Assembly: GCA_040900015.1 (NCBI GenBank)
Contig: JBBDZS010000022.1
Coordinates: 1-51,809, forward strand
Source of the DNA: Minisyncoccota bacterium
GTDB lineage: Bacteria > Patescibacteriota > Minisyncoccia > Phycocordibacterales > UBA9973
Reading direction: 5' to 3'
DNA length: 51,809 nt
In this document: positions 5,811 through 49,393 of the stretch, one piece after another
Position numbering within the stretch: the stretch's first letter is position 1
How the letters are laid out: each line of letters begins with the position of its first letter
Translations under genes and position numbers: made by a program
The notes under the pieces: model-generated
What the model was told of the DNA's origin: nothing
The model's input: only the letters and a program-made list of their open reading frames with translations
Databases searched by the model: none

Positions 5811-6908
5811 TTATATTCCCTCTTCTTTGAGCTTCTCTATTAGTTCACGAGATTTGCGAGAAATCTTGGTCGGTAGTTTGATGTTGAGCTTGATCAGGAT
5901 GTCACCTCTTTTGCCTTTACCCGCCGGCACGCCTTTACCTTTTACTCGTAGTATCTCGCCAATTGTCACTCCTTCCGGAATACTGACCTCTATTTCCCCG
6001 TCGAGTGTTTCGATAAAATGCTTCGCACCGAGTAAGGCATCGGAAAGTTTTAGATTCAAGGTCATAGATAAATCATTGCCTTCACGCTTGAACACTGGAT
6101 GCGCTGCCACATTAATCTTGATATAAAGGTCGCCGGTGGTGCCTTTGGATACCGCTTCGCCGTGTCCGGTCATCCGTATCATTTCGCCGTCTCGTATACC
6201 GGCTGGAATATTTAGAGTAATTTCTTCTTCTCTACGGAGCACTCCCTTGCCCTTGCATGTTTCGCATACTTCTTTCGGGACCTCTCCAGCCCCCAAGCAG
6301 GTTTCGCAGATTTTAGTATTGGCGATGGTGCCGAAAATAGTCCGCTTGGCTTCGTGAATCTTACCTTGTCCGTTGCACTTTTTGCATGTTTCCATTTTCG
6401 ATCCCTCCTTTGCGCCCGAACCCTTACAAGAGAGACAACTAGAAGTTTTTGTGATAAGTATTTTTCTTTCTACACCGAACACTGCATCAGAAAATGAAAT
6501 CTGAATTTCGGTGGAAATATCCCTACCTCTTCTTGCTTGAGCTCGGCCACCCCCCATACCTCCACTGAAAAAATCACTAAAAATATCGTTCAAATTTCCA
6601 AAATCGAAATCCACCGATCCGTTTCCAAAGCCTCCTGCGCCAGAGAAATCGAAACCGCCAAATCCCTGCGAAGCGCCGTAAGCCCCTCCGCCCATATTTT
6701 CGAATCCGGTGCCAAATTGATCGTACTTGGAGCGCTTGGAGTCATCGGAGAGCACTTGATATGCCTCGTTTACTTCTTTAAATTTAGCCTCGTCGCCCTC
6801 CTTTTTATCGGGGTGGTACTTGTGTGCCAACTTATAGAAAGCCTTCTTTATTTCGTCCTTTTTTGCGTCTTTATTGACGCCCAATATATCGTAATAGTCT
6901 TTTGCCAT
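5811..6908 (-). CDS. dnaJ: Molecular chaperone DnaJ
   Basis: J domain (DYYDILGV..HPDK), G/F-rich linker, four CxxCxGxG zinc-finger repeats, C-terminal substrate-binding domains. Confidence 0.95.
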   Translation of the reverse strand: MAKDYYDILGVNKDAKKDEIKKAFYKLAHKYHPDKKEGDEAKFKEVNEAYQVLSDDSKRSKYDQFGTGFENMGGGAYGASQGFGGFDFSGAGGFGNGSVDFDFGNLNDIFSDFFSGGMGGGRAQARRGRDISTEIQISFSDAVFGVERKILITKTSSCLSCKGSGAKEGSKMETCKKCNGQGKIHEAKRTIFGTIANTKICETCLGAGEVPKEVCETCKGKGVLRREEEITLNIPAGIRDGEMIRMTGHGEAVSKGTTGDLYIKINVAAHPVFKREGNDLSMTLNLKLSDALLGAKHFIETLDGEIEVSIPEGVTIGEILRVKGKGVPAGKGKRGDILIKLNIKLPTKISRKSRELIEKLKEEGI

Positions 6909-6914
6909 ATGGAT

Positions 6915-7010
6915 AGAATATCATAATTATCGGGTCTTTCGCAAGCCGACGGGCTGAGAATGAGCAAATTTTCAGCAGAAAATTATGCGACCCGATAATT
7001 ATGATATTCT
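6915..7010. repeat. Perfect 22-bp inverted repeat with 52-nt spacer in the ATPase-dnaJ intergenic region
   Basis: agaatatcataattatcgggtc (6915-6936) is the exact reverse complement of gacccgataattatgatattct (6989-7010). The proximal arm ends 6 nt upstream of the dnaJ ATG (6908). Confidence 0.9.
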
Positions 7011-7017
7011 TGTAATT

Positions 7018-8472
7018 TTATATCATCGGCTCAGCTTCCACAGATGGTTTATCGCCGTCCTTCTTATGCCCCTTGCCTTCGATGATAGCCTTCTCTTCCG
7101 CACTTCGGATAATGGTGGATTCCTCTTCAGCGATCAGCTTGGCCGCATCACCTCTTGGTATAGAATACTTTCTACGGGAAGCCTCGATTATTTCCTTCCT
7201 GTATGAAGTGTGGGTTGGTGGTAGAACACGCAGGGTTTCCGCCGAAAACGGATCATAAGACTCCCCGTCTATCGTCATCTTTATGTAAATTTCTCCGACT
7301 GCGAGATTTATCATATCTTTCACATCGAAAAGCGGAGAAAATTCTGGCTTCATTTTGACCGCGTCTTCCCCACCCACTCGAAATGTGATAACTGAACCTA
7401 CATTTCCGAGCACTGCCTGGTGCACCTTGGGTAATATCTGGCCGACATATTGATGAGCTATGGTAAGGTTGAGGCCGTATTTGCGCGCCTCAGATAAAAT
7501 ATTTTCAAATGTCTGAGTCACCACATTTTGAAACTCGTCGACATATAGATAGAAATCGACACGTTCTGACTCCGGTATGGCGGCACGCTCCATTCCGGCT
7601 TGCTTTATCTTAGTTAAGAACATCGAACCCAGAAAAGAGGAATTCTCTTCGCCTAGGCGACCCTTAGATAAATTGATGAAAATGATCTTGCGTTCGTTCA
7701 TCAGCTTACTTATGTCGATTTTATTCTCTTTCTGTCCAAAAATATTGCGAAGGAGCGGATCAGACAAAAATTGACCTAGCTTATTCACCAGCGGAATGAT
7801 AGCGTCGGTGTCGAACTTCTCCGACCAATCGGCAAATTCAATAGCGAAGAATCTTTTGACCATATCATCGGTGATGTATTCCACCACCTTCTGTCTATAA
7901 TTTCGATCCGTAAGCATTGATATCATTCCACGCATTGTGGCGTGAGGATAATCCAAAAGTGCCAGACAAGTGAAACGGAAGACATGTTCGAGCCTAGGGG
8001 TCCAGTTGGCACCGAATTGTTTCTGAAAAACTTCGATCAGTCCCTGGGTGAGCTGGAATTTGAACATCGGGTCCACATTGGCAAGTGGATTGAAAGAAGC
8101 AGGAAAATCAATGTCGGCTGGATCAATAATGCACACATCTTCGATACGTTCTTTAGGAATATAGTCGAGCATGGCATCGATGACATCGCCGTGTGGGTCG
8201 ATCAGACACAGACCGTGACTATATGTCACATCCTGGCGAAGCATAAGTTCTAGGAGCTTAGTCTTGCCTACGCCGGACTTACCGATGATATATAGGTGGC
8301 GCCTGCGGTCCACCCGCTTGATACCGAAAATGAATTTCTTTTCTTCGAGCGCAGCCACATAGTTCGTCCTGCCGATAAAAGACACCTCTTCGGGTTTGAC
8401 CTTGCCGAAAACAGGCAGCTCAGGCGGTGGAGGTCCATGTTTGATTATTTGCACCCGGTTCAGCTTGGACAT
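7018..8472 (-). CDS. Soluble TraD/VirD4-like (type IV coupling protein-like) P-loop ATPase, paralog 1
   Basis: Walker A IIGKSGVGKT, Walker B-like DFYLYVDEFQN, then SEARKYGLNLTIAHQY. No TM segment. Clear paralog of 10270-12339. Confidence 0.7.
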   Translation of the reverse strand: MSKLNRVQIIKHGPPPPELPVFGKVKPEEVSFIGRTNYVAALEEKKFIFGIKRVDRRRHLYIIGKSGVGKTKLLELMLRQDVTYSHGLCLIDPHGDVIDAMLDYIPKERIEDVCIIDPADIDFPASFNPLANVDPMFKFQLTQGLIEVFQKQFGANWTPRLEHVFRFTCLALLDYPHATMRGMISMLTDRNYRQKVVEYITDDMVKRFFAIEFADWSEKFDTDAIIPLVNKLGQFLSDPLLRNIFGQKENKIDISKLMNERKIIFINLSKGRLGEENSSFLGSMFLTKIKQAGMERAAIPESERVDFYLYVDEFQNVVTQTFENILSEARKYGLNLTIAHQYVGQILPKVHQAVLGNVGSVITFRVGGEDAVKMKPEFSPLFDVKDMINLAVGEIYIKMTIDGESYDPFSAETLRVLPPTHTSYRKEIIEASRRKYSIPRGDAAKLIAEEESTIIRSAEEKAIIEGKGHKKDGDKPSVEAEPMI

Positions 8473-12356: not shown

Positions 12357-12370
12357 GTAAATAAACAAAC

Positions 12371-12405
12371 AAAAAAGCCCAAGGCGGTCGCCGAGAGGCT
12401 TTTTT
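12371..12405 (-). terminator. Candidate intrinsic terminator downstream of the small TM ORF
   Basis: A6 run, GC-rich imperfect hairpin (gcccaaggcggtcgccgagaggc), T6 run. The stem pairing is imperfect. Confidence 0.4.
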
Positions 12406-12421
12406 GTTTGTTTAGCAAAAT

Positions 12422-31621: not shown

Positions 31622-32749
31622 CTATTTCACCACTCCCCCGCCCAAGCAAACATCCTTGTCGTATACTACCACCGACTGGCCAGAAGCAACCATAACCGAC
31701 CTTTGAAAAATTACTTGCGCAAGGTTCGACTTTGCACAAATTATAGTACAAGGTAAGAAATCGCCATGATAACGCACTTGAGCTGTATATATTTTATCTG
31801 CTTTCGGTTGTAAAAAAATCCAGTTTGTATTTTCTATTCTAATGTTCGTTAGAACTTTAGAATGAGAATATGTTGAATTTTGGGATACTATTAGGATATT
31901 TTTCTTTAAATCCTTGGCTACTACATAATACGGTCCGTCGTTGGGGCTTTTCTTGGTTACGGTAAATCCATGCCTTTCGCCCAAGGTATGGAAAACTGCG
32001 CCCATGTGCCAGCCGATAATTTTGCCTTTCTCGTTGACTACCTTGCTTTTTTTTTCTTTTATATAGTGTTTCAAAAATTCTTTGAGATCTATCGCCCCCA
32101 AAAAACATATCCCTTGACTATCCTTTTTTTTCGCGACTGGCAATTTGAATTTTTTAGCAAGAGTACGAACTTCAGTCTTTTTCAAATGTCCGACTGGAAA
32201 CAATATCTTACTTAGTTGTTCCTGTCTCAATGTCCAAAGAAAATAGCTTTGATCTTTTGAAACATCTTTGCCCTTTAAAAGTAAAGAATCGTAAGATTTC
32301 TGACCGCGGAAGGTTCCGCCCGCAGGGTGGAGGAAAGCGAAAGAAATTTTATGATTCTTTACTTTTGCATAGTGTCCAGTCGCTACAAAATCTGCACCCA
32401 TCTTAAGAGACTTTTTTAAGAAAGCGCCGAATTTGACCTCCTTGTTGCACATCACATCCGGGTTTGGTGTCCGCCCGGCCTTGTATTCCGAGATCATATA
32501 ATCCGCCACCTCCCTCTTGTAAACATCTTCTAGGTCAAAAATAAGGAAAGGAATATCCAGATGAGCGGCCACCCGCATCGCATCGCGGCGCTCTTCCTCC
32601 TCGTTGCACTCCAGAAAATCTGGATGCCAGGTGCGGATAAAAACCCCAACGACATCAAAGCCCTGGTTCTGCAGAAGCGCCGCGGCAACTCCGGAATCCA
32701 CTCCGCCGGAAAGACCCACAAAGACTGTTTTATTTGCAGTTTTTTTCAT
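31622..32749 (-). CDS. mnmA: tRNA-specific 2-thiouridylase MnmA
   Basis: PP-loop VGLSGGVDSGVAA, CN..VKF, and KDQSYFL. The ATG at 32749 is preferred; the ORF-track GTG at 32761 is the alternative. Confidence 0.9.
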   Translation of the reverse strand: MKKTANKTVFVGLSGGVDSGVAAALLQNQGFDVVGVFIRTWHPDFLECNEEEERRDAMRVAAHLDIPFLIFDLEDVYKREVADYMISEYKAGRTPNPDVMCNKEVKFGAFLKKSLKMGADFVATGHYAKVKNHKISFAFLHPAGGTFRGQKSYDSLLLKGKDVSKDQSYFLWTLRQEQLSKILFPVGHLKKTEVRTLAKKFKLPVAKKKDSQGICFLGAIDLKEFLKHYIKEKKSKVVNEKGKIIGWHMGAVFHTLGERHGFTVTKKSPNDGPYYVVAKDLKKNILIVSQNSTYSHSKVLTNIRIENTNWIFLQPKADKIYTAQVRYHGDFLPCTIICAKSNLAQVIFQRSVMVASGQSVVVYDKDVCLGGGVVK

Positions 32750-45568: not shown

Positions 45569-46741
45569 TCAATACCACTTTTTTAATTTGGTCAAAATTT
45601 GCTTGAGCGCATTTATGGTGATGTCGATATCCCCCTTGCTGGTGTCCCTACCGAAGGAAAATCTTATGGAGCCGTCGGTTTCTGCTAAGTCCCCCCGGAG
45701 CGCCTGAATCACATGCGAGGCCTTGCCGTCACCCGACTTGCAAGCGCTCTTAGAAGAAGCCTCAATACCACGAGCATTGAGCTCGAGCACTAGGAGGTCG
45801 CTCGGTATTTTCGGCACAGTAATACTGACATTGTTCGGCAATCTATTTCTTAAATCACCATTTACAATTATTCTGGTATTCTCAAGAATACCAGAATAGT
45901 TTAATTTACTAATGAAATAATCGCGGAGTTTTTCTAGGCGCGCCGATTCTTTTTCCTTTATATTTTGCGTAGCCAAAAGCGCCTCGGCAAACTTAGTTAT
46001 GGATGGTAGATTTTCGGTTCCTGGTCGAAGCCCCGCCTCTTGATTTCCTCCGCCAAAAAGTGGTGCAAGTATGATATTAGCTTTCTTATACAGTGCCCCC
46101 GCTCTGCCGGAGCCTTCTATTTTGGCGCCCGATAAGGTAAGTAGGTCCACCCCTAACCTCTCTACATTAAGGTTGAGATAATTAACAGCCTGTACTGCGT
46201 CGGTGTGAAATAAAACCTTCGTTCCGTATCGCTTGTTGTGATGTCTGACACATTTAGCGATTTCTCTTATTGGTTGTATTGTGCCTATCTCATTGTTCGC
46301 ATACATTACAGAGACAAGTAATGTATTTTTTTTGATTGCCTTTTTTATATTTTCCGAGTCCACAATACCACTGGATTCTACAGGCACGAAAGTTATTTCC
46401 GCAAGTTTTCTTTTTTCGAGCAGTTTGCATGTTTCCAGAACAGATGAATGCTCGATGTTTGTAGTCACGATATGGGGTAGAATATTTTTTTTCCATGCCC
46501 ACACCGCCCCTGCGATTGCCAAGTTATTACCCTCAGTTCCCCCACTCGTAAATATCACTTCTTCCCTACGACAAACCAACACTTCCGCCACTTTCGTACG
46601 GGCTTCTTCGAGTATTATTTTCGCTTCTACCCCGCTTTTATGGATGGAGCCTGGATTTGCCGAGACGCCGGAAGCGTAATCCAGGTATATTTTGCTGGAG
46701 CTTTTATTGTGTTTATTGGGTTTTTTAATTGATTTAGGCAC
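45569..46741 (-). CDS. Cysteine desulfurase (class V aminotransferase, NifS/IscS-like)
   Basis: IYLDYASG, FTSGGTEGNNLAI, HTDAVQA, SGAKI (PLP lysine) and SSKSACKSG (catalytic Cys loop). Confidence 0.8.
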   Translation of the reverse strand: MPKSIKKPNKHNKSSSKIYLDYASGVSANPGSIHKSGVEAKIILEEARTKVAEVLVCRREEVIFTSGGTEGNNLAIAGAVWAWKKNILPHIVTTNIEHSSVLETCKLLEKRKLAEITFVPVESSGIVDSENIKKAIKKNTLLVSVMYANNEIGTIQPIREIAKCVRHHNKRYGTKVLFHTDAVQAVNYLNLNVERLGVDLLTLSGAKIEGSGRAGALYKKANIILAPLFGGGNQEAGLRPGTENLPSITKFAEALLATQNIKEKESARLEKLRDYFISKLNYSGILENTRIIVNGDLRNRLPNNVSITVPKIPSDLLVLELNARGIEASSKSACKSGDGKASHVIQALRGDLAETDGSIRFSFGRDTSKGDIDITINALKQILTKLKKWY

Positions 46742-49357: not shown

Positions 49358-49393
49358 GCCATAAAAAATTAAAGCAGTTTAATTTTTTATGGC
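49358..49393 (-). other. Perfect 16-bp AT-rich hairpin just 3' of tRNA-Lys
   Basis: gccataaaaaattaaa (49358-49373), loop gcag, tttaattttttatggc (49378-49393). No U-tract follows on the minus strand, so it may be a processing site or an atypical terminator. Confidence 0.6.

Follow-up and report, generated by a model that had tools for sequence, protein, structure and literature searches.

A 96-nt palindrome upstream of dnaJ is probably a copy of a structured palindromic insertion family found largely in Paceibacteria

Results

A perfect palindrome fills the ATPase–dnaJ spacer

The window analysed here is a 51,809-nt stretch of DNA, contig JBBDZS010000022.1 of a Minisyncoccota bacterium (assembly GCA_040900015.1). 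Two of its minus-strand genes, encoding a soluble coupling-protein-like ATPase and DnaJ, are separated by 109 intergenic bases, and a hairpin occupies 96 of them (Table 1). The DnaJ N-terminus, MAKDYY, agrees with that of relatives. The ATPase C-terminus (..EAEPMI) is likewise the same as in relatives, with its stop codon 7 nt from the hairpin. The hairpin arms, AGAATATCATAATTATCGGGTC at 6915-6936 and its counterpart at 6989-7010, are exact reverse complements, with 22 of 22 positions paired around a 52-nt spacer. The initial annotation had described a perfect 22-bp inverted repeat spanning 96 nt and ending 6 nt before the dnaJ ATG, and by sequence that description is exact.

Within three mismatches, the 22-mer occurs twice in the window, as the two arms themselves (0.00 expected from 100 shuffles), and a genome-wide search across all 504 kb and 23 contigs found no further copy. 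Scanning the genome for perfect inverted repeats (arms of at least 14, spacer of at most 100) returned 37, against 0.4 in a shuffled genome, and the 22-bp repeat is the longest of these. Folded as minus-strand RNA, the hairpin region reaches -49.9 kcal/mol (z = -7.8). The locus is present in three metagenome runs, all of them DNA. In run X1, which is the source sample, a 159-nt low-depth contig from a diverged strain covers window 6880-6972; there too the element adjoins dnaJ, with two left-arm substitutions (6929 A>T and 6931 C>T), and the contig ends before the right arm.

Table 1. Features of the dnaJ locus, in window coordinates
Feature	Coordinates	Strand	Remarks
dnaJ, 365 aa	5811..6908	-	Pfam DnaJ, DnaJ_CXXCXGXG, DnaJ_C
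Spacer ATCCAT, 6 nt	6909..6914	-	from hairpin to dnaJ ATG (6906-6908)
Candidate extended -10 of dnaJ, TGATATTCT	6915..6923	-	outer arm end, 6 nt before ATG; inferred from sequence
Weak -35-like TTGCGA, supplied by the core	6939..6944	-	18 nt upstream of TATTCT; speculative
Whole hairpin element, 96 nt	6915..7010	+	fold-bearing (model) strand, antisense to dnaJ and the ATPase gene; strand from G.U versus A.C counts
P1 5' arm, 22 nt	6915..6936	+	inner GGGTC conserved in the family, outer part copy-specific
P1 3' arm, 22 nt	6989..7010	+	exact complement of 6915-6936
Three-way-junction core, 52 nt	6937..6988	+	
Core: joining U	6937	+	
Core: P2a	6938-6940 with 6958-6960	+	UUC/GAA, covaries with UGC/GCA
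Core: asymmetric internal loop	6941-6943 opposite 6956-6957	+	GCA opposite GA
Core: P2b, 4 bp	6944-6947 with 6952-6955	+	loop GACG, 6948-6951
Core: joining UGA	6961-6963	+	
Core: P3, ~10 bp, AU-rich	6964-6973 with 6978-6988	+	A6985 bulged; loop AGCA, 6974-6977
Soluble HerA/TrwB (coupling-protein-like) ATPase	7018..8472	-	Pfam TrwB_AAD_bind, T4SS-DNA_transf, DUF87

The spacer is the conserved part of a dispersed family

BLASTN of positions 6900-7025 against 61 relatives gave matches in 59, plus two further sites in the same genome. The matches span query positions ~33-94 only, corresponding to the 52-nt spacer together with GGGTC/GACCC, and the two further same-genome copies hold the same core inside wholly different long inverted arms. 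As a fallback, the initial annotation had raised a miniature inverted-repeat element, to be recognised by more copies of the 22-mer. Dispersed copies do exist, through the 52-nt spacer; the 22-mer arms are unique in the genome. Because the conserved part is the spacer, a search with the 22-mer alone would miss the family.

We built a covariance model of the element, R1, with 82 positions and 32 pairs, which matches 6922-7003(+) with 100.1 bits (E 1.4e-22). It finds about 12 copies in the 504-kb genome, 8 of them with E<1e-10, and 6-7 copies in each of two other congeners within the class sample. Nearly every congener has copies. Of the class genomes sampled, 17 of 151 match, with up to ~20 copies each, and among the sampled genomes outside the class there are three weak single matches. 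Individual copies are 80-120 nt in size and dispersed. The family is thus largely confined to the class Paceibacteria (Patescibacteria/CPR). One region of the window's own genome, C2:1991-2235, holds two copies back to back in opposite orientation (C2:2022-2105 on the minus strand and 2138-2219 on the plus strand), and this pair sits between, or overlaps, two divergent genes.

The core folds as a covarying three-way junction

In alignment A2, which comprises 58 copies, 94.1% of cells pair, a percentage that leans high since the alignment was fitted to the model structure, against 62.8% for shuffled partners and 39-54% for slid partners. Double-sided changes occur at 31 of the 32 pairs. These changes and the slid controls are unambiguous despite the model-fitted alignment. 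The unpaired bases of the core are near-invariant at CGCAG, GACGG, CGAG and CAGCAG. Covarying helices together with conserved loops point to a selected fold. The small spacer hairpin AGCC-GACG-GGCT that had been picked out from the sequence, at 6944-6955, is real and covaries across the family.

Searched with the Rfam covariance models, the window copy and 20 other loci gave only chance microRNA-hairpin matches far below gathering scores. A hammerhead was considered by eye, GUC and GAAA being present, and rejected: neither strand has the CUGANGA core, and C17 would fall in a helix. Neither the hammerhead nor other small self-cleaving ribozymes yielded anything in Rfam at E<=10.

The fold is selected on one strand, independently of the host gene

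On the model strand, G.U and U.G combinations number 79 against 19 for A.C and C.A (p = 7e-10). Symmetric mutation would give equal G.U and A.C, so pairing is selected on one strand. Split by orientation to the host gene, G.U against A.C stands at 34:8 for sense copies and at 32:9 for antisense ones. Since the bias is the same in both, the fold belongs to the element and not to the host transcript.

We then took a census of orientation in 46 copies that had not been chosen by gene. Within long ORFs lie 15 of the 46 (10 sense and 5 antisense). Between co-directional genes, 8 are sense and 10 antisense, while 6 lie between divergent and 5 between convergent genes; the 2 left unclassed have one neighbour gene outside the locus. 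Bias with respect to replication strand was not significant, the model strand being G-rich in 18 copies and C-rich in 28.

Outer arms differ at each copy and occupy ancestral positions

P1 is 15-40 bp long across copies, with a median of 22, and the window copy is typical. Core identity between copies has a mean of 0.68, whereas the outer ten arm positions reach 0.38, against 0.39 expected from column composition. Even in copy pairs whose cores are at least 85% identical, outer-arm identity is just 0.42. Some copies in other genomes match the window core at 88-90% identity and have arms that do not align with the window arms. Weak conservation among copies extends to a T-tract and to the innermost 5 bp of the stem, GGGTC/GACCC.

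Filled sites can be compared with empty ones at three genes. TsaD is 24 codons longer than its G014 counterpart, and the ancestral codons for KEKQS and NxSxFS fall within its outer arms. In the peptide deformylase gene (def), the 5' outer arm encodes the conserved EEGF residues. The dnaJ spacer measures 109 nt against 46 nt in G014, and ...TATTCT-ATCCAT-ATG aligns with TATAAT-ATCCAATT-ATG of that genome. These comparisons suggest that only ~60-80 nt were added at insertion, and for that reason the outer arms would be local DNA made complementary after or during insertion. An NFSFSG duplication beside the TsaD copy was considered as a copied flank and dropped, as the DNA is only 12/18 identical.

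A search for target-site duplications found no direct repeat flanking the window copy or the other copies in its genome. Nor did any fresh, polymorphic insertion come to light: at the dnaJ locus the source sample shows the filled site only. In other genera (L012-L014, L018-L021, L029-L033), copies share 11-15 bp of stem, for example GTTTTGCAAGACC, and are flanked by a direct-repeat-like arrangement, CGAAGG-N4-[hairpin]-N5-CAAGG. This motif may reflect target preference or duplication, or mark the true ends of the element. Because these subfamilies share both 11-15 bp of stem and the CGAAGG/CAAGG motifs, the true element ends are uncertain.

Copies lie in frame within housekeeping proteins

Three copies in the window's own genome lie in frame within genes, encoding a UvrD/PcrA-like helicase, TsaD and peptide deformylase (Def). 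All three have one orientation and one frame (GGT CTT TCG CAG ...), and the ORFs stay open throughout. In other genera, copies occur in UvrA and in a protein that we take, from its IIGSRRFLERVWK motif, to be a probable leucyl-tRNA synthetase; these carry ~27 extra residues relative to the uninterrupted genes of the window's genome.

The TsaD loop between LAEG and LPRPM holds a hairpin in most of 30 congeners, drawn either from the dnaJ-element family, in either orientation, or from other hairpin families. Short empty alleles are found in G014, G001 and two others. The variable loop of Def has the same pattern of occupancy. Across congeners, the TsaD (L071-L100) and Def (L101-L130) loops carry different palindromic insertions, for example of the IPLLRGG...TPQEEN type, and in G033 (L077) a plain perfect 22-bp hairpin fills the loop. 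Both surface loops are hot spots for several hairpin families. What looks like insertion in these loops may be tip replacement or targeting of pre-existing palindromes, because most congeners have these sites filled, with hairpins that vary in family and run in either orientation.

dnaJ is most likely a leaderless gene with its -10 in the arm

The initial annotation had remarked that dnaJ lacks a Shine-Dalgarno sequence. This is correct, and the same is true genome-wide: no Shine-Dalgarno-like peak appears upstream of the 394 long ORFs. Instead, 64 of these 394 have a TATAAT hexamer matched at 5/6 or better with exactly 6 nt between its end and the ATG, where background would give ~5, or ~4.9 for the 5/6 and 6/6 classes combined, and the genome-wide leaderless consensus reads TGnTATAAT-6-ATG. 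This signal indicates that leaderless initiation is widespread in this genome. The dnaJ start, TGATATTCT-ATCCAT-ATG, falls in a class with a 4/6 hexamer plus TG, which at spacing 6 comprises 6 genes versus 0.6 expected. Since its candidate extended -10 ends 6 nt before the ATG, as in the genome-wide consensus, dnaJ is most likely leaderless, with the -10 in the outer arm end and the hairpin outside the dnaJ mRNA. The TTGCGA/TATTCT pair scores 8/12, under the promoter-scan threshold. The arm had been placed at -7 to -28 of dnaJ and within its mRNA; the position stands, and the probable leaderless start argues against the arm's inclusion in the transcript.

Covariation in homologous intergenic regions had been proposed as a check; compensatory changes appear across the element family. 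Before dnaJ itself, the element is absent in 27 of the 29 congeners with a readable dnaJ start. The remaining two are the window's own genome and G032, which has a divergent family member with different arms. In element-free congeners the dnaJ spacer measures 9-60 nt and contains a TATAAT-like -10 whose distance to the ATG is 6-9 nt in most; in several, TTGACC lies ~17 nt before this hexamer. Three loci (L043, L049 and L057, from G211, G032 and G015) show a duplicated dnaJ start (ATGAGTAAAGAC, TAGCAAAAGAC or GTGTCTAAGGAC) between promoter and ATG, followed by a ~45-nt conserved motif, CCCCGCAUAAAAGCAAAGCUUUAAACAGGGCAAGUUAYC.... The motif at this dnaJ 5' end looks like another small inserted or structured element.

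Neighbouring genes and Y1 enzymes as candidate movers

When the ORFs of 36 loci were clustered, no recurrent neighbour gene emerged, the only shared ones being host genes such as UvrA, and no related autonomous element with the same ends was found among the neighbours. The one transposase family tested, Y1_Tnp, gave no transposase for the element. Y1 enzymes of the IS200/RAYT type were rejected as the mover: among genomes with the element 10 of 12 have Y1_Tnp (PF01797), and among those lacking it 7 of 12 do, which is no correlation. The local Y1 gene, C14:6667-7341, was also set aside, being flanked by its own, different hairpins. This RAYT/IS200-like HUH gene (~225 aa) is bracketed by inverted REP-like hairpin copies, TTGAGCAAGG-GGAGTC-CTTGCTCAA. 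A Y1-like ORF lies at C12:18471-18695, and Y1 HUH-type genes number up to 8 per genome in the class.

Discussion

A probable insertion with arms proposed to be made locally

The 96-nt palindrome is, with good probability, a copy of a non-autonomous family of structured palindromic insertions, largely of Paceibacteria, and not a regulator of dnaJ. Its conserved unit is a ~52-60-nt three-way-junction tip on a long basal stem. In the sequence of events that we propose, a ~60-80-nt unit, made up of the core and 5-15 bp of weakly conserved stem, would have landed in the short ATPase–dnaJ spacer in this lineage. Local host sequence would then have supplied the outer stem, and intramolecular template switching is the simplest route to it. 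The outer arm end would still carry the extended -10 of dnaJ, and transcription would start at or next to the ATG, leaving the hairpin out of the dnaJ transcript. As for the strand-specific tip, an enzyme acting in trans probably recognises its structure, either in single-stranded DNA or in an RNA copy. At this locus, judging from sequence, the palindrome is probably a passenger beside a leaderless dnaJ of the ordinary kind.

A more far-reaching version, which we consider rather unlikely, makes the tip a new functional fold, be it a single-stranded DNA recognition or cleavage structure, a small ribozyme or an aptamer, that drives an undescribed form of mobility in Patescibacteria. Here ~60-80 nt would move, and hairpin-templated synthesis would then make the flanks into a long perfect palindrome. 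If this were true, each copy would gain its own arms, and the element could colonise the surface loops of essential proteins as well as promoters such as that of dnaJ.

Weighing regulatory and processing roles

The initial annotation favoured an RNA thermometer or a processing/attenuation element. As a thermometer or translational attenuator, a hairpin in the dnaJ 5' UTR would block the ribosome when cool and open on heat shock. The hairpin does end 6 nt upstream of a heat-shock gene start, its fold is very stable, and transcription could in principle begin at its first base from a TATAAA that overlaps the stop codon of the ATPase gene. Known RNA thermometers, however, are weak, imperfect helices. 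In a ViennaRNA partition function from 15 to 85 C, the probability that the 3' arm is unpaired is 0.002-0.005 at 15-45 C and 0.08 at 75 C (92% paired), so that in silico it does not melt between 15 and 75 C. The AUG lies outside the helix and there is no Shine-Dalgarno sequence to sequester, no Rfam thermometer family matches, the same element sits within ORFs and in all orientations, 27 of 29 congeners lack it before dnaJ, and the selected strand here is antisense to dnaJ. Compared with ROSE, fourU and cspA-type thermometers, the likeness is a hairpin beside a heat-shock gene start; sequestration, physiological melting, conservation at the locus and strand polarity all differ. We regard the thermometer as largely refuted and give it hardly any probability. 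Just as improbable is control of dnaJ at the DNA level, through a protein operator or cruciform that would act as heat-shock repressor sites do. Such a site would account for a perfect palindrome overlapping the probable dnaJ -10, yet the arms lie 74 bp apart centre to centre, are unique in the genome and differ at each copy, the conserved part is a non-palindromic core, and the G.U/A.C asymmetry argues for single-strand folding. As for the specific case of a CIRCE/HrcA operator, no CIRCE-like site is present in the window. Likely operators in this genome are short ATTCT-type palindromes.

A stronger competitor, though still improbable, is a structured RNA module that benefits the host: a 3' stabiliser, RNase III site or terminator-like insulator for the ATPase mRNA that would keep it apart from dnaJ expression, with a protein-binding tip. 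Transcribed with the ATPase gene, the element would form a long double-stranded 3' region; an RNase III homologue is encoded at C23:37466-38047, and RNase III acts on Correia elements in transcripts (PMC10969869). The core is under strong purifying selection and all helices show compensatory changes, which also speaks for such a module, and core conservation in old, apparently orthologous copies fits host function equally well as it fits re-insertion or gene conversion. Flanks in this genus tend to be A-rich 5' and T-rich 3', and T-runs come after the hairpin in 15-19% of copies (background 7.7%). Against it stand the random orientation to transcription seen in the census, the like G.U bias of sense and antisense copies, the one third of copies inside coding sequences and the patchy taxonomic distribution. 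The window copy itself has no U-tract on either tail (minus strand AUCCAUAUGG, plus strand UGUAAUUU), a terminator scan found none at the element, and ordinary terminators here differ in form. We rejected a terminator role, as T-runs are enriched only ~2-fold across copies and the window copy has none.

Both the terminators and the operators just mentioned are palindromes of other kinds. Ordinary bidirectional terminators in the window (12362-12414, 511-546 and 49358-49393) consist of an A-tract, a GC clamp, a short loop and a T-tract, with perfect 14-18-bp arms. Short perfect palindromes with ATTCT half-sites, for example TATTCTGGTATTCT-CA-AGAATACCAGAATA, occur at window 45869-45898, C14:12802-12835, C23:25454-25485 and C5:1965-1992, and from their sequences look like operators of one DNA-binding protein.

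Relation to known palindromic elements

By analogy, the element is best read as resembling the Rickettsia palindromic elements (RPEs), small palindromic repeats that lie between genes or in frame in housekeeping genes, whose products gain a peptide segment (PMC10969869). Both are palindromes of ~100-150 bp in reduced genomes, lack a transposase of their own and lie unusually often in frame. The element at dnaJ differs in that conservation is restricted to the apical three-way junction, with a weak extension into the inner stem, and outer arms are unrelated between copies; its fold is strand-specific and the host phylum is another. The likeness drawn here is one of behaviour. Correia/NEMIS elements of Neisseria and the MITEs ERIC, BOX and RUP are similar as multi-copy hairpins of ~100 nt that can supply promoter elements, and the dnaJ-element arm, in Correia-like fashion, holds the probable dnaJ -10. 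Correia elements end in conserved 26-bp inverted repeats and duplicate a TA target. Here, in contrast, no conserved long terminal repeats or target-site duplication were found, and in-frame copies are far commoner. With a classical MITE the element shares its copy number, a size below 300 bp and the absence of coding capacity.

REPs are 20-40 bp long and carry an unpaired tag, GTAG or CGTC, at one end; some lie inside replication and repair genes (PMC3733652). Like REPs and REPINs, which RAYT (Y1 HUH) transposases mobilise, the dnaJ element is a strand-specific palindrome, a kind thought to act as single-stranded hairpins, and the complement of its P2 loop is CGTC. In the dnaJ element, however, CGTC is the loop of a 4-bp hairpin within a three-way junction and not an end tag. 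Quasi-palindrome correction by replication template switching, a known mutational route from imperfect to perfect inverted repeats (PMC7202029), would explain copy-specific, near-perfect outer arms on ancestral host positions; it is a mutational mechanism, not an element family.

Mobile DNA in minimal genomes

Full-text literature on palindromic, MITE, hairpin or in-frame elements of Patescibacteria/CPR contained no description of the family, which is apparently undescribed in the sources searched. The same holds there for the combination it presents: a selfish or semi-domesticated element with a conserved strand-specific tip, locally made arms and no visible transposase. Patescibacteria genomes are among the smallest and most streamlined free-standing ones, yet about a dozen hairpin copies are present here, several in essential genes. 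The family bears on how mobile DNA persists in minimal genomes and on how protein surface loops and promoters are remodelled in them. It also bears on genome annotation, because such hairpins mimic regulatory RNAs and terminators and inflate ORFs.

A second hairpin-element family is present in the same genome, at window 32277-32366, C12:6236-6335 and C10:776-853. Each member has perfect arms of its own, 14-17 bp long, enclosing another conserved core, ..GAC(C)GCGGAAGGTTCCGYCC...GGAGGAAAGCGA.., in the same architecture as the dnaJ element.
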